From: Escherichia coli
Lineage (GTDB): Bacteria > Pseudomonadota > Gammaproteobacteria > Enterobacterales > Enterobacteriaceae
Assembly: GCF_003018255.1 (NCBI RefSeq)
Contig: NZ_CP027440.1
DNA: 64,000 nt
Direction: 5' to 3' (one strand)
Below, in pieces: positions 1-55,020 of this stretch. Position numbers and translations under genes: made by a program. The number at the start of each line of letters is the position of its first letter. Positions within the stretch are counted from its first letter, which is position 1. The notes beneath the pieces are model-generated. The model was not told the DNA's origin, did not search any database, and saw only the letters and a list, made by a program, of their open reading frames with translations.

Positions 1-663
1 CGTAAAGCAGCGCAATCTGACCCGAACTGTTTCTTTATTGATGACGAGAATTCCCGCACGTTGTTCCTTGGGTATTCCGTCGCTGGCCAGCGTCTTAAAG
101 CGCAATTTGCCGAGCAAGGTCGTATTGTCGATGCTGATAACCCTCTGTTTGTCTATCTGCCGTGTGGTGTTGGCGGTGGTCCTGGTGGCGTCGCATTCGG
201 GCTTAAACTGGCATTTGGCGATCATGTTCACTGCTTTTTTGCCGAACCAACGCACTCCCCTTGTATGCTGTTAGGCGTCCATACAGGATTACACGATCAG
301 ATTTCTGTTCAGGATATTGGTATCGATAACCTTACCGCAGCGGATGGCCTTGCAGTTGGTCGCGCATCAGGCTTTGTCGGGCGGGCAATGGAGCGTTTAC
401 TGGATGGCTTCTATACCCTTAGCGATCAAACCATGTATGACATGCTTGGCTGGCTGACGCAGGAAGAAGGTATTCGTCTTGAACCTTCGGCACTGGCGGG
501 TATGGCCGGACCTCAGCGCGTGTGTGCATCAGTAAGTTACCAACAGATGCACGGTTTCAGCGCAGAACAACTGCATAATGCCACTCATCTGGTGTGGGCG
601 ACGGGAGGTGGAATGGTGCCGGAAGAAGAGATGGAGCAATATCTGGCAAAAGGCCGTTCATAA
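1..663 (+). CDS. dsdA: D-serine dehydratase, C-terminal part (5' end outside window)
   Basis: Frame open from position 1 to stop at 661-663; translation ends ...[13 protein letters not shown], consistent with PLP-dependent D-serine ammonia-lyase; followed by emrY as in E. coli. Confidence 0.88.
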
Positions 664-767
664 CGTTTCAACGCAGCATCGCCATCCTTTCCCTGGGTGA
701 GCGATGCTGCCGATGGCGCAGACTTAAGATCCCCGGTCTTACCTGCTATAATTCTCTCTTTATACCA

Positions 768-2306
768 TCACCCAACGCCTTTCGCTGTAAACGGCGGTTT
801 CGCAAACCAAACCAATACCGTAAGTAAGATAAAAGCAATAGCCGCCATACGGAAAATCTCATTTGCAGAAATTGAAAGTGACTGCTGAGTTATTTCATTA
901 TTAATTTCATTAAGAACTCCTGAAAGCGAACCATAGTATTTATCCATAATTTGTGACGATGAATTAAATACGGGGTTAAATTGATCGATGGTTGCTGTCA
1001 ACTGACTATGGTGTAACGATTCGCGTCGTCCCCACAGCGTCATTGTCAACGACGTACCAACTGATCCTGACAAGGTACGAAAAAAATTACTCATACTCGA
1101 GGCATTGGCAAATTTATTATCTGGCAACCCTGAAAACGAAATCGTTGTTAAGGGTAAAAAGAAACAGGCAACGGCGAATCCCTGGAAAAACTGTGGCAAA
1201 ATGATGCCTGTAAAATCAATCGTTGGCATAAATGTCACAGAACGCCAGTAATAGCAAACCGCATACATCAAAAAACTAAATGTCACCAACAACCGCATAT
1301 CAATTTTGTTGCCATAACGTCCTATCAAAGGTGATATTAATAGCGGCATGATGCCGATGGGCGCATAGGCAAGTCCGGCCCATATCGCATTATACCCCAT
1401 CGTTTCCTGGAGTAACTGCGGCATAAGGACTATCGCCCCAGAGTAAAATAAATACGCGCATGTGATACTCACAATACCAATGGTGAAATTACGGGACTTA
1501 AACAAACTGAGATCAAGAATCGGATTCTCTGAGGTCGACTCCCAAATGACTAAAGAAATCAGAGAAATAACTGACACTACTGTTAGTATTATTATTGTAC
1601 TCGAGTTGAACCAATCCAGATCGCGCCCTTTATCAAGCATTATCTGCAAGCCACCAACACCGAGCACTAACAGGGTCAGTCCTGGTAGATTCATTTTGAC
1701 CGGTGAAGTCTCAGTTTCTCTTCCTTTAAGTAAGGTTAAGCATAATGTCAGAACGATAATCCCCATAGGGACATTGATTAAAAATATCCAACCCCAGCTA
1801 AAGTTATCGCAAATATAGCCGCCCAATATCGGCCCACATATCGGAGCGATAATTACGGTCATTGACCATAATGCCAAAGCAAATGTTCTTTTTTCTGGCG
1901 GATAATTCCTTAATAATAAACTCTGTGACAGTGGAATTAACGGCCCCGCCATTAAGCCCTGAACGACTCTAAAAAATATCAGCACATCAAGATTGGTCGA
2001 TAGGCTACACATTAATGAAGATAGTGAAAAAAAGGTTACTGAAAGTAAAAATAATCTTAATTCGCCTATTCTTTGTGCCAGCCTGCCGGTAACAGGGATC
2101 GCAATGGCATTTGCTACGCCAAACGAAGTGATAACCCAGGTGCCTTCGTCTGTTGATGCTCCCAGAAAGCCAGATATTGTCGGTATTGCGACGTTAGAAA
2201 TAGTGGAATCCAACATTTGCATAAACGTCGCTAAGGACAATGCAATAGTAACGCACCATAACGTCCCACCGGTTAATGGTGCCGGAGTTGATTTAGTGAT
2301 TGCCAT
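768..2306 (-). CDS. emrY: MFS multidrug efflux permease (EmrB-like, 14-TM class)
   Basis: 512-aa ORF, hydrophobic throughout; start overlaps emrK stop at 2306; matches EmrY. Confidence 0.93.
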   Translation of the reverse strand: MAITKSTPAPLTGGTLWCVTIALSLATFMQMLDSTISNVAIPTISGFLGASTDEGTWVITSFGVANAIAIPVTGRLAQRIGELRLFLLSVTFFSLSSLMCSLSTNLDVLIFFRVVQGLMAGPLIPLSQSLLLRNYPPEKRTFALALWSMTVIIAPICGPILGGYICDNFSWGWIFLINVPMGIIVLTLCLTLLKGRETETSPVKMNLPGLTLLVLGVGGLQIMLDKGRDLDWFNSSTIIILTVVSVISLISLVIWESTSENPILDLSLFKSRNFTIGIVSITCAYLFYSGAIVLMPQLLQETMGYNAIWAGLAYAPIGIMPLLISPLIGRYGNKIDMRLLVTFSFLMYAVCYYWRSVTFMPTIDFTGIILPQFFQGFAVACFFLPLTTISFSGLPDNKFANASSMSNFFRTLSGSVGTSLTMTLWGRRESLHHSQLTATIDQFNPVFNSSSQIMDKYYGSLSGVLNEINNEITQQSLSISANEIFRMAAIAFILLTVLVWFAKPPFTAKGVG

Positions 2307-3469
2307 TAAAGTTGTCCATTATGCGAAATAATGTTGCTAATTTCTTTTTCTATCGGAGTAGTATCGATAACTAAAGCCTTACTGGTATAAGCAGGCATGG
2401 AGGTCACGGTTGAAGCCAGCTCAGGCATCTCAGCAATGTCTTCGTCCTTCGTATCAATAGTTGCAGTCATCGATAAACCAATACGTAAGGGATGTTCCAT
2501 GAGTTCTTTTGGATCAAGAGAAACTTCAACCGGTACACGCTGAACGATTTTGATCCAGTTCCCTGTCGCATTTTGTGCAGGTAATAAGGAGAACGCATTG
2601 CCGGTTCCCATATTGATTCCTGTCACCCGACCATGAAACACAACATTTTCACCATAAAGATCGCTGATAATATTGACCGATTGACCAATCCGTACATCCG
2701 TGAGTTGTGTTTCTTTAAAGTTGGCATTAACCCACATTTGACGTGCCGGTACGACAGCCATTAACGATTGTCCGGGACTCACTGTTTCGCCGACCTGAAC
2801 ACTTCGCTGGGCAATATAGCCGGTAACAGGACTCTTAATATCCGTACGTTTAAGCGCTAACCAGGCTTCTTTGGTTGCATCTGCCGCTTCAACGACTTGT
2901 GGCTGACGGTTTAATGGTGTGTTCATTACTAAAGCTTTATTCGCTTTATAAGCCTGGATAGCGGCATTCAATGCCGCTTTGCTACTTATTAACGTATCTT
3001 TGGTATGCTCCAGCGTTTCTTTTGAAATAACCCCCTGCTTCGCTAAAGGCACACGACGGTTATAATCTTCTAAAGATTGTTGATACTGAATACGTGCTGA
3101 AGCGACTTCGGCACTGTATTGTTTATCCTGTAAGTACAGTTTATTCGTTTGCCGAACAATATTTGCCAGATTATTTTTAGCTTTATTGAGTGCGATAGTG
3201 GCATCAGTCTTATCCAGTGAGACTAAAATGTCACCCTGTCGAACGTAGTTCGTATCTTTATGATTAACGACAGTGACGCTGCCTGAAACTTGTGCAGAAA
3301 TTGGATCTGCATTCCCCGTGACATAGGCGTCATCTGTACTAATCATGTCTTCTAATTCCATTGACCAATAGGCATAGGCACCTGAAAACGCAATAAATAA
3401 AACTACCGCCAATAAAGAAAAGTATTTTCTTCTGTTAGAATGTTTTTTATTTGAATTAATCTGTTCCAC
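2306..3469 (-). CDS. emrK: Membrane fusion protein of EmrKY efflux pump (HlyD family)
   Basis: 387-aa ORF with N-terminal TM anchor and coiled-coil-like middle; immediately upstream of emrY on same strand. Confidence 0.93.
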   Translation of the reverse strand: MEQINSNKKHSNRRKYFSLLAVVLFIAFSGAYAYWSMELEDMISTDDAYVTGNADPISAQVSGSVTVVNHKDTNYVRQGDILVSLDKTDATIALNKAKNNLANIVRQTNKLYLQDKQYSAEVASARIQYQQSLEDYNRRVPLAKQGVISKETLEHTKDTLISSKAALNAAIQAYKANKALVMNTPLNRQPQVVEAADATKEAWLALKRTDIKSPVTGYIAQRSVQVGETVSPGQSLMAVVPARQMWVNANFKETQLTDVRIGQSVNIISDLYGENVVFHGRVTGINMGTGNAFSLLPAQNATGNWIKIVQRVPVEVSLDPKELMEHPLRIGLSMTATIDTKDEDIAEMPELASTVTSMPAYTSKALVIDTTPIEKEISNIISHNGQL

Positions 3470-3642
3470 TTTTATCTCTCATTTCGCATAGATGAAATTT
3501 ATGAATTGAATGAAAAGAGTATTCATTCTTCATATCAAACACAGTGCATGTGTTGCACATTATCCCAGGAACGTTGGAGGCCTAATTTAAATGAGGTGCA
3601 AAAAAAACAACAGAGGACTAAACCGTGGCTTTTGCAATACAA

Positions 3643-3660
3643 TTCTTACGCATGTAGGAT
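3643..3660. promoter_or_regulatory. EvgA-box-like imperfect inverted repeat in emrK-evgA divergent promoter region
   Basis: TTCTTACG-CA-TGTAGGAT resembles the reported EvgA 18-bp motif TTCPyTACA-N2-TGTAPuGAA; about 175 bp upstream of emrK start. Confidence 0.5.
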
Positions 3661-3884
3661 TAGTGAGAAGACTTATAGTGCTAATGTGAAACTATAAATC
3701 ATCGGTACAATCCCTGATTTTATTGTTGACATTTCATTTATGCCGACTATTTATATGGTATACTTGTTGAATTATCTTAAAGGAAGCTCAAATTTTCTTA
3801 TTTTGATTGAGAAAATGAGATGATGCCTTATGTCTGTATTACTACAGGGAGAAGGGAAATGCTTCATTGCAAAGGGAATAATCT

Positions 3885-4499
3885 ATGAACGCAATAATTA
3901 TTGATGACCATCCTCTTGCTATCGCAGCAATTCGTAATTTATTGATCAAAAACGATATTGAAATCTTAGCGGAGTTGACTGAAGGGGGAAGTGCCGTTCA
4001 GCGGGTGGAAACACTTAAACCTGATATCGTCATCATTGATGTCGATATCCCCGGAGTTAACGGTATCCAGGTGTTAGAAACGCTGAGGAAGCGCCAATAT
4101 AGCGGAATTATTATTATCGTCTCCGCTAAAAATGACCATTTTTACGGGAAACATTGTGCTGATGCTGGCGCTAATGGTTTCGTGAGTAAAAAAGAAGGCA
4201 TGAACAATATCATTGCAGCTATTGAAGCTGCAAAAAATGGCTACTGCTATTTCCCCTTCTCTCTCAACCGGTTTGTTGGAAGTTTAACGTCCGACCAGCA
4301 AAAACTCGACTCCTTATCGAAACAAGAAATTAGTGTCATGCGGTATATTCTTGATGGCAAGGATAATAATGACATTGCTGAAAAAATGTTCATCAGCAAC
4401 AAAACTGTCAGCACTTATAAAAGTCGCTTGATGGAAAAATTAGAATGCAAATCACTGATGGATCTTTACACATTCGCACAACGTAACAAAATCGGCTAA
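3885..4499 (+). CDS. evgA: Response regulator EvgA (receiver domain plus LuxR-type HTH)
   Basis: 204-aa ORF; receiver motifs (IIIDDHP, DIVIIDVDIPG) and C-terminal HTH (ISNKTVSTYKSRLMEKL); AAGGGA Shine-Dalgarno upstream. Confidence 0.95.
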   Translation: MNAIIIDDHPLAIAAIRNLLIKNDIEILAELTEGGSAVQRVETLKPDIVIIDVDIPGVNGIQVLETLRKRQYSGIIIIVSAKNDHFYGKHCADAGANGFVSKKEGMNNIIAAIEAAKNGYCYFPFSLNRFVGSLTSDQQKLDSLSKQEISVMRYILDGKDNNDIAEKMFISNKTVSTYKSRLMEKLECKSLMDLYTFAQRNKIG

Positions 4500-7500: not shown

Positions 7501-8097
7501 ATGCAACATTATGATCTGCTTATTACTGACGTTAATATGCCGAATATGGATGGTTTTGAGTTGACTCGCAAACTCCGAGAGCAAAATTCTTCCTTACCCA
7601 TCTGGGGGCTTACAGCCAACGCACAGGCTAACGAACGTGAAAAAGGGTTAAATTGCGGCATGAACTTATGTTTGTTCAAACCGTTGACTCTGGATGTACT
7701 GAAAACACATTTAAGTCAGTTACACCAGGTTGCGCATATTGCACCTCAGTATCGCCACCTTGATATCGAGGCCCTGAAGAATAATACGGCGAATGATCTA
7801 CAACTGATGCAGGAGATTCTCATGACTTTCCAGCATGAAACGCATAAAGATCTACCCGCTGCGTTTCATGCACTAGAAGCTGGCGATAACAGAACTTTCC
7901 ATCAGTGTATTCATCGCATCCACGGTGCGGCTAACATCCTGAATTTGCAAAAGTTGATTAATATTAGCCACCAGTTAGAAATAACACCTGTTTCAGATGA
8001 CAGTAAGCCTGAAATTCTTCAGTTGCTGAACTCTGTAAAAGAACACATTGCAGAGCTGGACCAGGAGATTACTGTTTTCTGTCAGCAAAATGACTAA
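4504..8097 (+). CDS. evgS: Hybrid sensor histidine kinase EvgS
   Basis: 1197-aa ORF; signal peptide, large periplasmic region, TM, H-box (MSHEIRTPISS), receiver domain (LIADDHPTN...DVNMPNMDGF) and C-terminal HPt (HRIHGAANIL). Confidence 0.95.
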   Translation: MKFLPYIFLLCCGLWSTISFADGDYIEYRGISSNNRVTLDPLRLSNKELRWLASKKNLVIAVHKSQTATLLHTDSQQRIRGINADYLNLLKRALNIKLTLREYADHQKAMDALEDGEVDIVLSHLVASPPLNDDIAATNPLIITFPALVTTLHDSMRPLTSSKPVNIARVANYPPDEVIHQSFPKATIISFTNLYQALASVSAGQNDYFIGSNIITSSMISRYFTHSLNVVKYYNSPRQYNFLLTRKDSIVLNEVLNRFVDALTNEVRYEVSQNWLDTGNLAFLNKPLELTEHEKQWIKQHPDLKVLENPYSPPYSMTDETGSVRGVMGDILNIITLQTGLNFSPITVSHNIHAGTQLNPGGWDILPAAIYSEDRENNVSFAEAFITTPYVFVMQKAPDSEQTLKKGMKVAIPYYYELHSQLKEMYPEVEWIKVDNASAAFHKVKEGELDALVATQLNSRYMIDHYYPNELYHFLIPGVQNASLSFAFPRGEPELKDIINKALNAIPPSEVLRLTEKWIKMPNVTIDTWDLYSEQFYIVTTLSVLLVGSSLLWGFYLLRSVRRRKVIQGDLENQISFRKALSDSLPNPTYVVNWQGNVISHNSAFEHYFTADYYKNAMLPLENSESPFKDVFSNTHEVTAETKENRTIYTQVFEIDNGIEKRCINHWHTLCNLPASEHAVYICGWQDITETRDLIHALEVERNKAINATVAKSQFLATMSHEIRTPISSIMGFLELLSGSGLSKEQRVEAISLAYATGQSLLGLIGEILDVDKIESGNYQLQPQWVDIPTLVQNTCHSFGAIAASKSIALSCSSTLPERYLVKIDPQAFKQVLSNLLSNALKFTTEGAVKITTSLGHIDDNHAVIKMTIMDSGSGLSQEEQQQLFKRYSQTSAGRQQTGSGLGLMICKELIKNMQGDLSLESHPGIGTIFTITIPVEITQQVAAVEAKAEQPITLPEKLSILIADDHPTNRLLLKRQLNLLGYDVDEATDGVQALHKVSMQHYDLLITDVNMPNMDGFELTRKLREQNSSLPIWGLTANAQANEREKGLNCGMNLCLFKPLTLDVLKTHLSQLHQVAHIAPQYRHLDIEALKNNTANDLQLMQEILMTFQHETHKDLPAAFHALEAGDNRTFHQCIHRIHGAANILNLQKLINISHQLEITPVSDDSKPEILQLLNSVKEHIAELDQEITVFCQQND

Positions 8098-13653: not shown

Positions 13654-13896
13654 GCGCCGGTGATGTACAAGTAAGGGTATGATTACGCTTTTTAAAGCGT
13701 ACCATAAAACATAACATAATAAATGATTTATGATGACACGGGATTATTGCGGTTTACTTTGAAGAATATAAAATGCGAGTTTATAGCACCGCGAGCGCCA
13801 AATAATTTTATGGCCACAACCTGTCGTATTGTGGCCATAAAAAATTGTCGGCTGGAGGGAGTAAAATCCTTTACCTCAATATATTGCCTGTCAGCT

Positions 13897-17120: not shown

Positions 17121-17183
17121 AGCAAACTGTGCAATGAAAAACAGGAGCCATCTGGCTCCTGTTTGCATTTCTGGCGATGGTGT

Positions 17184-20510: not shown

Positions 20511-21245
20511 GTGAAAGTCATCATTGTTGAAGACGAATTCCTGGCACAACAGGAACTGAGCTGGCTAATTAAAGAGCACAGCCAGATGGAGATTGTCGGC
20601 ACCTTTGACGACGGTCTGGACGTGTTGAAGTTTTTGCAGCATAACCGCGTCGACGCCATTTTTCTGGATATCAATATTCCGTCGCTGGATGGTGTGTTAC
20701 TGGCACAAAACATCAGCCAGTTCGCCCATAAACCGTTTATTGTGTTTATCACCGCGTGGAAAGAACATGCGGTAGAAGCGTTTGAACTGGAGGCGTTTGA
20801 CTACATTCTCAAACCGTATCAGGAGTCACGCATTACCGGGATGCTGCAAAAACTGGAAGCAGCCTGGCAGCAACAGCAGACCAGCAGTACGCCTGCCGCG
20901 ACGGTAACGCGTGAGAATGACACCATTAATCTGGTGAAAGATGAGCGAATCATCGTCACGCCAATTAACGATATCTATTACGCCGAAGCGCACGAGAAAA
21001 TGACCTTTGTCTATACGCGGCGTGAATCCTACGTAATGCCGATGAACATTACCGAATTTTGCAGCAAACTGCCGCCATCGCATTTTTTCCGCTGCCATCG
21101 CTCATTTTGTGTCAATCTGAACAAAATCCGCGAGATCGAACCGTGGTTTAATAACACCTATATTCTGCGGCTGAAAGATCTGGATTTTGAAGTGCCGGTC
21201 AGCCGCAGCAAAGTTAAAGAATTCCGCCAGTTAATGCATCTTTAA
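20511..21245 (+). CDS. ypdB: LytTR-family response regulator
   Basis: Receiver domain (KVIIVEDEF...DAIFLDINIP) plus LytTR DNA-binding domain; GTG start with GGAG 8 nt upstream; ORF-track start at 20493 uses an unlikely TTG that overlaps the ypdA stop. Confidence 0.88.
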   Translation: MKVIIVEDEFLAQQELSWLIKEHSQMEIVGTFDDGLDVLKFLQHNRVDAIFLDINIPSLDGVLLAQNISQFAHKPFIVFITAWKEHAVEAFELEAFDYILKPYQESRITGMLQKLEAAWQQQQTSSTPAATVTRENDTINLVKDERIIVTPINDIYYAEAHEKMTFVYTRRESYVMPMNITEFCSKLPPSHFFRCHRSFCVNLNKIREIEPWFNNTYILRLKDLDFEVPVSRSKVKEFRQLMHL

Positions 21246-21257
21246 TCGGGAACTTTC

Positions 21258-22115
21258 ATGAAAGCACCAGGCTTGCCCGCCGATCAACAATTTTTCGCCG
21301 ATCTGTTCAGCGGCCTGGTGCTTAACCCGCAACTACTGGGGCGCGTCTGGTTTGCCAGCCAGCCTGCCTCGTTACCGGTGGGCAGTTTATGTATTGATTT
21401 TCCCCGTCTGGATATCGTGCTGCGCGGCGAATACGGCAATCTGCTGGAAGCAAAGCAGCAACGTATGGTTGAAGGAGAAATGCTGTTTATTCCGGCGCGC
21501 GCGGCTAATTTACCGATCAACAACAAACCGGTGATGCTGTTAAGCCTGGTGTTCGCACCGACCTGGCTTGGGTTATCGTTTTACGATAGCCGCACCACGT
21601 CGTTGTTGCATCCGGTTCGCCAGATCCAACTTCCCAGCCTGCAACGCGGCGAAGGTGAAGCAATGCTTACTGCCCTCACCCATCTTAGCCGTTCGCCGCT
21701 GGAGCAGAATATCATTCAGCCGCTGGTGTTAAGTTTGCTGCATCTTTGCCGTAACGTGGTGAATATGCCGCCGGGCAATTCGCAGCCGCGCGGCGATTTT
21801 CTCTATCACAGCATTTGTAACTGGGTTCAGGATAATTATGCCCAGCCGCTCACCCGTGAGAGCGTGGCGCAGTTTTTTAATATCACGCCAAATCATCTGT
21901 CAAAACTGTTTGCTCAGCATGGAACAATGCGTTTTATCGAGTATGTTCGCTGGGTACGAATGGCAAAAGCGAGGATGATTTTGCAAAAATATCATCTGTC
22001 GATTCATGAAGTGGCGCAGCGTTGCGGGTTTCCGGATAGCGACTATTTTTGTCGCGTTTTCCGGCGTCAGTTTGGTCTGACGCCGGGAGAGTACAGCGCC
22101 CGTTTTCAGGGCTAA
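21258..22115 (+). CDS. ypdC: AraC-family transcriptional regulator
   Basis: 285-aa ORF with C-terminal AraC-type HTH (HEVAQRCGFPDSDYFCRVFRRQFGLTPGEY). Confidence 0.9.
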   Translation: MKAPGLPADQQFFADLFSGLVLNPQLLGRVWFASQPASLPVGSLCIDFPRLDIVLRGEYGNLLEAKQQRMVEGEMLFIPARAANLPINNKPVMLLSLVFAPTWLGLSFYDSRTTSLLHPVRQIQLPSLQRGEGEAMLTALTHLSRSPLEQNIIQPLVLSLLHLCRNVVNMPPGNSQPRGDFLYHSICNWVQDNYAQPLTRESVAQFFNITPNHLSKLFAQHGTMRFIEYVRWVRMAKARMILQKYHLSIHEVAQRCGFPDSDYFCRVFRRQFGLTPGEYSARFQG

Positions 22116-37983: not shown

Positions 37984-38024
37984 TAAAAAACGGCAGGGGT
38001 ATCTCTCCTGCCGTTTATCTTTTA
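37984..38024. terminator. Bidirectional intrinsic terminator between yfeD and gltX
   Basis: AAAAAA-CGGCAGG-GGTATCTCT-CCTGCCG-TTTATCTTTT. Confidence 0.75.
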
Positions 38025-38032
38025 TGCGCTAA

Positions 38033-39448
38033 TTATTGCTGATTTTCGCGTTCAGCAATAAAAGCCAGCGCTTTGTTGATACGCTCGATACTGCGGGTCT
38101 TACCGATTGCGTGAACGGTAACATCCAGCGCCGGAGACTGCCCCGCACCGGTTACGGCGACACGCAGCGGCATACCAACTTTACCCATACCCACTTCCAG
38201 CTCATCCGCCGTCGCCTGAATAGCGTGATGAACGTTTTCAGCGGTCCAGTCAGTAATCGCAGTCAGTTTGTCACGAACCACTTCCAGCGGCTGACGCGCT
38301 ACCGGACGCAGATGTTTTTTCGCGGCGTCGGCATCGAACTCAGCAAAATCTTCGTAGAAATAACGGCAGCTCTGTGCCATCTCTTTCAGCGTCTTGCAGC
38401 GTTCGCCCAGCAGTTTCACCAGATCAGCCAGCTGCGGGCCGTTACGGGTATCGATATTTTCCTGCTCAATGTGCCATTGTAAGTGAGTAGCAACATACTC
38501 CGGCGGCAGCGCGTTAATGTAGTGATGGTTCAGCCACAGCAGCTTGTCGGTGTTGAACGCACTGGCAGATTTGCTGACGGCATTCAGAGTGAAGTATTTG
38601 ATCATCTCTTCACGAGTGAAGATTTCCTGATCGCCGTGGGACCAGCCCAGACGCACCAGATAGTTCAGCAGTGCTTCTGGCAAATAACCGTCATCACGAT
38701 ACTGCATTACGCTGACCGCCCCGTGACGTTTGGACAGTTTTTTACCGTCATCGCCGTTGATCATAGAAACGTGCGCGTAAACCGGTACCGGCGCTTTCAG
38801 GGCTTTAAGAATGTTGATCTGGCGCGGCGTGTTGTTGATATGGTCTTCGCCACGGATAACATGGGTGATTTCCATATCCCAGTCATCAACAACCACACAG
38901 AAGTTATAGGTTGGGGAACCATCGGTACGGCGAATGATCAGATCATCCAGCTCCTGGTTGCTGAACTCAATCGGGCCACGGATCTGATCGTCAAAAACAA
39001 CAGAACCTTCCTGCGGGTTAGCAAAACGTACAACGCACGGTTCATCATCAGCATGATGCTCATGGCTGTGGCGGCAGCGACCGTCATAACGCGGCTTCTC
39101 ACCTTTCGCCATTTGCTCTTCGCGCAGCGCTTCCAGGCGCTCTTTAGAACAATAGCATTTATAAGCTGTGCCCTCTTCCAGCATCTGATCGATCACCGCG
39201 TTGTAGCGATCAAAACGTTTGGTCTGGTAGTACGGACCTTCATCCCACTCCAGGCTCAGCCAGTTCATGCCATCCATAATGGCTTCGATAGCTTCCGGCG
39301 TGGAACGCTCAAGATCGGTGTCTTCAATACGCAGCACGAACTCACCGCCGTGGTTACGTGCAAAAAGCCAGGAGTAAAGAGCAGTACGCGCGCCGCCAAC
39401 GTGCAGATAGCCTGTTGGGCTTGGCGCGAAGCGAGTTTTGATTTTCAT
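38033..39448 (-). CDS. gltX: Glutamyl-tRNA synthetase
   Basis: 471-aa ORF with class I HIGH motif ([12 protein letters not shown]) and KMSKS-type motif (KLSKR). Confidence 0.96.
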
Positions 39449-40108: not shown

Positions 40109-40135
40109 AAAAAAGCGCCCTAAAGGCGCTTTTTT
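40109..40135 (+). terminator. Intrinsic terminator of the val-lys tRNA operon
   Basis: AAAAGCGCC-CTAA-AGGCGC-TTTTTT immediately after lysV. Confidence 0.8.
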
Positions 40136-44514: not shown

Positions 44515-44551
44515 TTGATTACTGCCGGGGCTCCCGGCAGTATGAATAGCT

Positions 44552-52036: not shown

Positions 52037-52064
52037 AAAAAAGCACCTTTTCAGGTGCTTTTTT
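52037..52064 (+). terminator. Intrinsic terminator after cysK
   Basis: AAAAGCACC-TTTTCAG-GGTGC-TTTTTT. Confidence 0.8.
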
Positions 52065-54991: not shown

Positions 54992-55020
54992 AAAAATGGC
55001 GCCCATCGGCGCCATTTTTT
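54992..55020. terminator. Bidirectional intrinsic terminator shared by crr and pdxK
   Basis: AAAAATGGCGCC-CATC-GGCGCCATTTTTT; the T-tract overlaps the pdxK stop codon (55019-55021 on minus). Confidence 0.8.

Follow-up and report, generated by a model that had tools for sequence, protein, structure and literature searches.

The 3' part of dsdA, the gene for D-serine ammonia-lyase, lies at the beginning of the window (the whole stretch of 64,000 nucleotides of Escherichia coli DNA that was analysed) and converges on emrY. The spacer between the two genes features an inverted repeat just past the dsdA stop codon (TAA, 661-663). The initial annotation of this DNA described the element as a long-loop inverted repeat without a U-tract and offered a protein-binding site or an mRNA 3' stabiliser as its role; the ORF list and the RefSeq annotation agree with the position that it gave, between the convergent genes. 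The coordinates of the genes, the hairpin and the surrounding features are collected in Table 1.

Table 1. Features at the 3' end of dsdA, in window positions, and the basis for each.
Feature	Position	Strand	Basis
dsdA 3' part (D-serine ammonia-lyase)	1..663	+	ORF list, RefSeq annotation of identical strain and K-12, alignment
yidF 3'-end fossil	668..735	-	Translations, nucleotide alignments to Citrobacter, Salmonella and K-12 yidF
Complete RNA hairpin	673..710	+	Inverted-repeat search and folding
Perfect inverted repeat, 5' arm GCAGCATCGC	673..682	+	Inverted-repeat search
Perfect inverted repeat, 3' arm GCGATGCTGC	701..710	+	Inverted-repeat search
Term-seq 3' end equivalent (K-12 NC_000913.3 2480585)	715	+	Adams et al. 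2021, PMC7815308, Supplementary file 1, sheet LB 0.4
C-rich, G-poor tract, candidate rut region	725..790	+	Composition count
emrY, convergent gene, secondary hairpin neighbour	768..2306	-	ORF list, RefSeq annotation of identical strain and K-12
Rho termination region peak equivalent (K-12 2480768), antisense to emrY	898	+	PMC7815308, Supplementary file 2

Positions 658-663 of the window read TCA (Ser) and TAA where K-12 features the tandem stops TAA TAA, and the DsdA protein ends in …KGRS, one residue longer than the …KGR of K-12. In RefSeq, the dsdA of the identical strain and that of CUVET19-1993 are each annotated with 3 additional nt. The segment 560-860 represents an uncommon E. coli haplotype, which is matched with at least 99% identity over 301 nt in only 3 of 5399 genomes; strain 2017.09.02CC, from Viet Nam, matches it exactly.

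Structure of the hairpin and its variation in E. coli

The two arms of the repeat are 100% complementary over 10 bp and are 18 nt apart, as had been reported, and the hairpin begins 9 nt past the dsdA stop. The loop, however, is not long. Pairing goes on within the spacer, where CATCC (683-687) is bound to GGGTG (695-699) in an inner stem of 5 bp that includes one U.G pair, and A700 is bulged. The true loop consists of 7 nt (688-694) and the total stem of 15 bp. RNA folding, which had been proposed as a check, determined a stability of -26.3 kcal/mol for the 38-nt hairpin on the plus strand, compared with -10.3 +/- 2.7 kcal/mol for shuffled sequences (z -6.0), and 0 of 200 shuffles were as good. 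The minus-strand RNA folds with -21.6 kcal/mol, and here too 0 of 200 shuffles were equally stable. From the emrY stop to dsdA this hairpin is the sole strong structure that folding revealed. Its GC-rich stem of 15 bp and its short, 7-nt loop are like those of intrinsic terminators. Sequence inspection found no U-tract after the stem on either strand, and a terminator consensus scan of positions 400-1100 gave 0 terminator-like sites, which bears out the earlier statement that this is not a typical intrinsic terminator. The stem is flanked by CGUUUCAAC and CGAUGGCG; the tail, which is also read as CGAUGGCGCA, includes one U in the 8 nucleotides of CGAUGGCG.

One perfect 10-bp repeat alone is not significant. 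Markov simulations determined that such a repeat, with a loop of 3-30 nt, is expected ~1.9 +/- 1.5 times per 64 kb, and the 64-kb window features 24 such seed matches, which form 12 distinct hairpins. The repeat behind dsdA is counted as real because it is conserved in E. coli, has orthologues in other genera and adjoins a mapped RNA 3' end. Eleven further hairpins with perfect arms of at least 10 bp and loops of at most 30 nt are located in the window at 7833-7871, 13806-13842, 17139-17164, 21165-21208, 22061-22086, 37988-38016, 38033-38061, 40109-40135, 44520-44542, 52037-52064 and 54992-55019, and several of them start with A-runs, in the manner of terminators. An Rfam search of positions 400-1100 (E <= 10) returned only chance matches, to eukaryotic and CRISPR families. 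A REP or other dispersed repeat was considered for the hairpin behind dsdA and rejected, as the 42-mer is found at a median of one place per genome, with a maximum of 2, and is without an Rfam match.

Within E. coli, the hairpin was found in 5394 of 5426 genomes, and all but two of these 5394 (5392 genomes) share at least 95% identity with the window over the 42 nt of the hairpin stretch. Over the adjoining 55 nt, the identity is 80-90% in 3991 of 4229 genomes, and in ~1200 this segment is undetectable. Three hairpin haplotypes make up 97% of the genomes. All 15 pairs are intact in the window-type haplotype (1355 genomes), one inner pair is lost in the K-12-type haplotype (3290 genomes), and in the ST131-type haplotype (591 genomes) the outer stem includes an A.C mismatch without a compensating change. 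Read in the emrY sense rather than the dsdA sense, this ST131-type substitution gives a G.U pair instead of a mismatch. In addition, E. coli S3 (NZ_CP196491.1) has a second dsdA locus with a diverged, non-coding hairpin, GCCACATCGACTCCC...GGGAGAATGATGTGGC, which features three compensatory changes relative to the window. The arms at this second E. coli locus are GCCACATC/GATGTGGC. The second dsdX-dsdA copy of S3 (fetched locus ~1605-1645) adjoins a gene for an 'inovirus-type Gp2 protein'.

Origin in yidF and conservation across genera

The hairpin coincides with the 3' end of a yidF remnant on the minus strand. The fossil stop TGA lies at 668-670, read as the reverse complement, and the last 13 codons, QHRSPRERMAMLR, together with the stop correspond to the end of Citrobacter YidF, QHRSPMELMAMLR. 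Read from 745 to 668, the minus strand translates as QVRPGILSLRHRQHRSPRERMAMLR before the stop, and the corresponding ends of YidF are SPHMRVMRDLIKQHRSPMELMAMLR in Citrobacter and GPYMRVMRDLRRQQRPPEALMPLLR in K. pneumoniae. The nucleotide homology extends from the yidF stop to ~724-735 and fades beyond. An intact yidF frame is not present beside dsdA here: the frame closes 26 codons upstream, and the similarity is lost past ~20 codons. The alignment also revealed a ~6-nt deletion directly after the stem, which took out an ancestral TTTAAT; a partial U-tract follows the ancestral stem, UUUAAU in Citrobacter and CUUUAU at the native yidF of K-12. The hairpin of the second dsdA copy in S3 reads PHHSPVKRESMWQN in the yidF frame. 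YidF matched no family in Pfam, and its only similarity in NCBIfam, to the C-terminal half of anaerobic sulfatase maturases, stayed below the threshold.

The dsdA loci of 80 species-level genomes were compared, and the DNA 3' of each dsdA stop was folded. A yidF homologue is convergent beside dsdA in 37 of the 80 genomes, as determined by tblastn with K-12 YidF as the query. The same hairpin was found in Citrobacter, Klebsiella, Raoultella, Pseudocitrobacter, Salmonella and Buttiauxella, where it lies inside the 3' end of the convergent yidF, and yidF is followed at those loci by yidG and yidH. The intact yidF of K-12 (b3674) is located elsewhere and converges on emrD, with 7 nt between the stops; its last 13 codons feature a homologous 38-nt hairpin, GCAGCATCGT...ACGATGCTGC, with one compensatory pair change. 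Judged by these alignments, the repeat that flanks dsdA is a yidF relic that stayed attached to dsdA, and the E. coli dsd genes derive from a yidF-adjacent context. Different hairpins or none are found in some relatives. Leclercia features a different hairpin, a few nucleotides upstream, and folding detected no hairpin after dsdA in Lelliottia and in some Enterobacter of the 80-genome set. In Lelliottia and an Enterobacter MAG (fetched loci ~3117-3135), dsdA is extended (…LAKGRPSRLP followed by the stop) and shares 9 nt with the end of yidF. In K. spallanzanii and K. oxytoca (fetched loci ~3175-3215), dsdA and yidF are separated by a two-way intrinsic terminator of textbook form, AAAATGGCGACGAAAG...CTTTCGTCGCCATTTTTTT, and the yidF-internal hairpin has decayed to ~5 bp.

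The fossil hairpin is also present in E. albertii and Escherichia sp. E1V33, where the 2.5 kb fetched downstream of dsdA are without emrY and an lpxP-like gene is located ~900 nt 3' of dsdA (fetched loci, 3158-4100). Because emrY is absent after dsdA in E1V33 and E. albertii, and the lpxP-like gene is found there, emrY looks like a later arrival beside the hairpin, inserted in E. coli afterwards. The rest of the block up to yfdX on the K-12 map was presumably inserted together with emrY.

The pairing was analysed in an alignment of 41 sequences in codon register. Standard pairs occupy 81.5% of the cells, compared with 20-59% when the 3' partners are slid. Double-sided changes were found at 4 of the 15 pairs, with U-A replaced by G-C five times at one pair and C-G replaced by G-C or U-A four times at another. 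This covariation is modest, the sequences are phylogenetically related, and the number of covarying pairs does not exceed the shuffle control (280/500). Paired codons shift jointly: CAG-CAT-CGC (QHR) with GCG-ATG-CTG (AML) becomes CAG-CAG-CGG (QQR) with CCG-CTG-CTG (PLL) in Klebsiella, where the arms are GCAGCAGCGGC/GCCGCTGCTG. In Pseudocitrobacter, the arms are GAAGCATCACC/GGTGGTGCTTC and their register is shifted by 3 nt (one codon). A loop deletion in E. albertii results in a 5-nt loop and Kluyvera features ~9 nt between the arms, and in these the stem is kept or lengthened. The possibility that the palindrome is forced by the protein sequence was rejected, as the amino acids co-vary with the pairing and the pairing persists in the non-coding fossils.

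The RNA of the dsdA sense is more stable than that of the opposite sense in 35 of the 41 sequences, and one U.G pair is kept in 36 of 41. Because of these two features, the conserved entity would seem to be RNA rather than DNA, to which both the U.G pair and the dsdA-sense bias point. In the dsdA sense, the stability is -26.3 kcal/mol for the window fossil, -20.6 kcal/mol for Citrobacter and -17.8 kcal/mol for the native yidF of K-12. Where the gap between dsdA and yidF is at most 14 nt, the yidF-end fold averages -21 kcal/mol (n=29), and it ranges from -8.8 to -18.2 kcal/mol in 5 genomes with an independent intergenic hairpin (Spearman -0.52, p 0.0015, uncorrected for phylogeny). The hairpin is retained where yidF is lost: Kluyvera is one case, the Escherichia locus upstream of lpxP is another, and a third is Raoultella sp. 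BIGb0138, in which yidF alone is deleted and yidG remains. The fossils of Escherichia, Kluyvera and Raoultella sp. BIGb0138 break off at varying distances past the stem. Rearrangements that break at the palindrome were considered and rejected, as the fossil ends lie at unequal distances beyond the stem.

Transcript ends, Rho and the C-rich tract

Published Term-seq data, the other check that the initial annotation had proposed, place an RNA 3' end of K-12 on the plus strand directly behind the hairpin (Adams et al. 2021, PMC7815308). Coordinate mapping puts K-12 position 2480585 5 nt past the last stem base, and the end falls between GAGCGATGCTGCCGATG and GCGCAGACTT (PMC7815308). The peak is weak, with 1243 reads in one of three conditions, in K-12 and without D-serine induction. 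The authors classed this end as 'orphan': their limit for 'primary' ends is 50 nt from the stop, and the distance from the annotated dsdA stop is 55 nt in this case (PMC7815308). The list of 3' ends of Adams et al. 2021 features no minus-strand end near the hairpin and no end at the native emrD/yidF hairpin. A strong Term-seq end on the minus strand of K-12 (3855526/3855529; 55,000-73,000 reads, two conditions) is located 85 nt into the yidF ORF, and a Rho region at 3854772 (-) is antisense to emrD, past the native yidF hairpin (PMC7815308).

On the plus strand, a Rho termination region in K-12 peaks at 2480768, 183 nt beyond the 2480585 end, with a score of 3.87 and p 3.9e-9 (PMC7815308). The downstream/upstream reads at this position change from 26/86 without bicyclomycin (BCM) to 253/216 with BCM (PMC7815308). 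The region was determined from 800-nt windows and is of low resolution, and the RNA may come from dsdA read-through or from a start downstream of the hairpin. Shortly behind the stem, the plus strand is strongly rich in C and poor in G. The bias is greatest at positions 740-779, which feature 15 C and 2 G; the C/G ratio is 7.5 there, while 40-nt windows across the 64 kb reach 3.4 at the 99th percentile. The K-12 equivalent features 19 C and 2 G, with a ratio of 9.5. A promoter-like site on the plus strand (724-752; TTAAGA-17 nt-TATAAT, TG before the -10, 10 of 12 matches) is directed into the emrY antisense, and it could be the source of some plus-strand RNA past the hairpin. Its K-12 counterpart has TATAAC as the -10 and CG for TG, which makes the site strain-specific.

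Proposed function and comparison with known systems

Rho-dependent ends were described by Dar and Sorek (2018, Nucleic Acids Res 46:6797, PMC6061677) as stable stem-loops without a U-tract, with the end a few nt past the stem and with enrichment of C over G downstream, and the stem-loop was presented as a shield against 3'-5' exonucleases. Because its features match these ends, the hairpin is read as the protective 3' stem-loop of dsdXA, and it is probably that of a Rho-terminated dsdA transcript, of a class already known. The reading builds on the structure, the yidF origin, the conservation and covariation, the K-12 3' end and the BCM-sensitive read-through in K-12, which are determined here or published. 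The dsdXA mRNA would include the inverted repeat, which would fold into the 15-bp stem-loop, and RNA polymerase would pass this hairpin unreleased and continue into the emrY antisense. Rho would then load on the C-rich, G-poor RNA just past the hairpin and terminate within the following 50-200 nt, acting in this scheme on dsdA read-through transcripts specifically. Trimming by 3'-to-5' exonucleases back to the base of the hairpin would give rise to the mapped end, a defined and protected end 5 nt past the stem, and the hairpin may in this manner raise the stability of the dsdA mRNA. Rho termination here would also limit antisense transcription into emrY. The suggestion of an mRNA 3' stabiliser thus gains support from the K-12 end, the Rho region downstream and the compensatory changes in relatives. 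The initial annotation had made conservation in related genomes the other touchstone of its repeat, and the structure is kept in them with compensatory changes. Its account of the repeat, its position and the missing U-tract holds as well; the yidF relic and the later arrival of emrY had escaped it.

A 3' end 5 nt after a stem of -26 kcal/mol could also be produced by a non-canonical intrinsic terminator, in which the stable hairpin frees RNA polymerase without a U-tract, perhaps aided by head-on emrKY traffic, and Rho handles only the read-through. The ancestral stem with its partial U-tract (UUUAAU, CUUUAU) may originally have been an intrinsic terminator. For the E. coli copy this explanation is nevertheless unlikely, as the ~6-nt deletion took away the U-rich tail, the present tail CGAUGGCG has a single U and the consensus scan is empty; in addition, the read-through into the emrY antisense is BCM-sensitive, and the rut-like C-rich tract right behind the stem suits the Rho model. 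Compatible with a protective stem-loop at dsdA is a two-way element, in which the palindrome also caps the emrKY transcripts, 58 nt past the emrY stop, and the conservation in E. coli reflects both genes. The stable minus-strand fold, the only strong one between the emrY stop and dsdA, is consistent with such a role, as are the ST131-type change, which is mismatched in the dsdA sense and G.U in the emrY sense, and the native hairpin, which closes the yidHGF operon with a Rho region downstream on that strand, 3854772 (-). The role is still doubtful: no minus-strand Term-seq end is listed near the hairpin, though emrKY expression is minimal unless EvgS is activated, the hairpin is older than emrY at this site, and the dsdA-sense fold is more stable in most sequences.

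The hairpin is demonstrably a gene fragment, exonucleases stall at any stable hairpin, and some E. coli lineages feature uncompensated stem mismatches, all of which would be expected of a functionless relic, an undecayed remnant of yidF coding sequence to which the 3' end is incidental. However, the fossil is far better conserved than the adjoining spacer, and its stability rose after the coding constraint ended (-26.3 kcal/mol, against the Citrobacter and native K-12 values given above). The loop deletions of E. albertii and Kluyvera left the stem intact or made it longer, the second dsdA locus features compensatory changes, and the hairpin was kept through several independent losses of yidF with different breakpoints, so that a relic of this kind is quite improbable. 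The perfect symmetry of the two 10-bp half-sites would suit a DNA palindrome, either an operator for a dimeric protein or a recombination site, but it is the complementarity that is conserved and not the half-site sequence, which differs in Klebsiella, Pseudocitrobacter and the second E. coli locus. The arms co-vary, and their spacing is 18 nt in the window and 5-9 nt in E. albertii and Kluyvera, with values of 5, 9 or 18 nt and a register shift of 3. Part of the spacer is paired, the conserved U.G pair (36/41) is sensible only in RNA, and the single-copy element sits at the 3' ends of both genes, away from promoters. The protein-binding site that had been suggested therefore finds no support, and a palindrome acting as DNA is hardly credible.

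With regard to the history of the hairpin, it is quite possible, if somewhat short of probable, that the RNA fold, in the service of the convergent dsdA or emrD, has shaped the final 13 codons of yidF more than the YidF protein has. On this view the hairpin behaves as a portable 3'-end module that belongs to the D-serine operon; it outlived yidF in no fewer than four settings (Kluyvera, Raoultella sp. BIGb0138, the second dsdCXA copy of E. coli and the Escherichia locus upstream of lpxP) and was strengthened once non-coding. An RNA 3' structure inside the coding sequence of one gene would then constrain the C-terminus of that protein, and the hairpin would survive the loss of yidF because the neighbouring operon needs it. 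The hairpin can also serve as a small marker of the history of the dsd locus, into which the emrYK-evgAS block appears to have been inserted later. The 3' end at 2480585 is already in a public table, but without an assignment to dsdA; with the present reading, the 'orphan' end on the plus strand of K-12 becomes assigned to dsdA, and the strong hairpin without a U-tract behind this gene is explained. A literature search on dsdA and terminators found only plant and yeast marker papers, and no paper was found on yidF and dsdA together. The yidF origin, the hairpin constraint on the YidF C-terminus and the survival past the gene were likewise not found in the literature, whose coverage was incomplete, which makes this weak evidence. 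As a functional element the hairpin is ordinary, its history is unusual, and the present understanding of termination is unchanged by these results.

Among known systems, REP/BIME elements resemble the dsdA hairpin in that they are imperfect palindromes in 3' intergenic positions that can stabilise the upstream mRNA; the dsdA hairpin differs in being single-copy, off the REP consensus and without an Rfam match. With a canonical intrinsic terminator it shares a GC-rich stem, a terminator-like size and loop and the location just after a stop, and the ancestral yidF version features a partial U-tract; the E. coli copy, in contrast, is without a U-tract and without an upstream A-tract. Bidirectional terminators between convergent genes, reportedly described with SEnd-seq by Ju et al. 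in 2019, are said to be flanked by A- and U-tracts; a related preprint is bioRxiv 10.1101/2022.10.23.513370. The dsdA/emrY hairpin is likewise one palindrome common to two convergent units that folds on both strands, but it is without A- and U-tracts, and its 3' end is listed on the plus strand only. At the native K-12 locus, where emrD and yidF converge, the hairpin is coding sequence in an intact gene, whereas the copy behind dsdA is a non-coding fragment of ~20 codons with a stronger stem. The comparison with the Rho-dependent protective stem-loops (PMC6061677) differs in the directness of the evidence: for the dsdA end, whose peak is weak and 'orphan', Rho dependence and exonuclease trimming are what we infer, and the BCM-sensitive signal is located 183 nt past the dsdA end in data from 800-nt windows. 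In common with these stem-loops, the dsdA hairpin features a stable stem-loop right before a precise steady-state 3' end (in K-12, a weak peak in one condition), the absence of a U-rich tail and a rut-like tract with C in excess of G just downstream.
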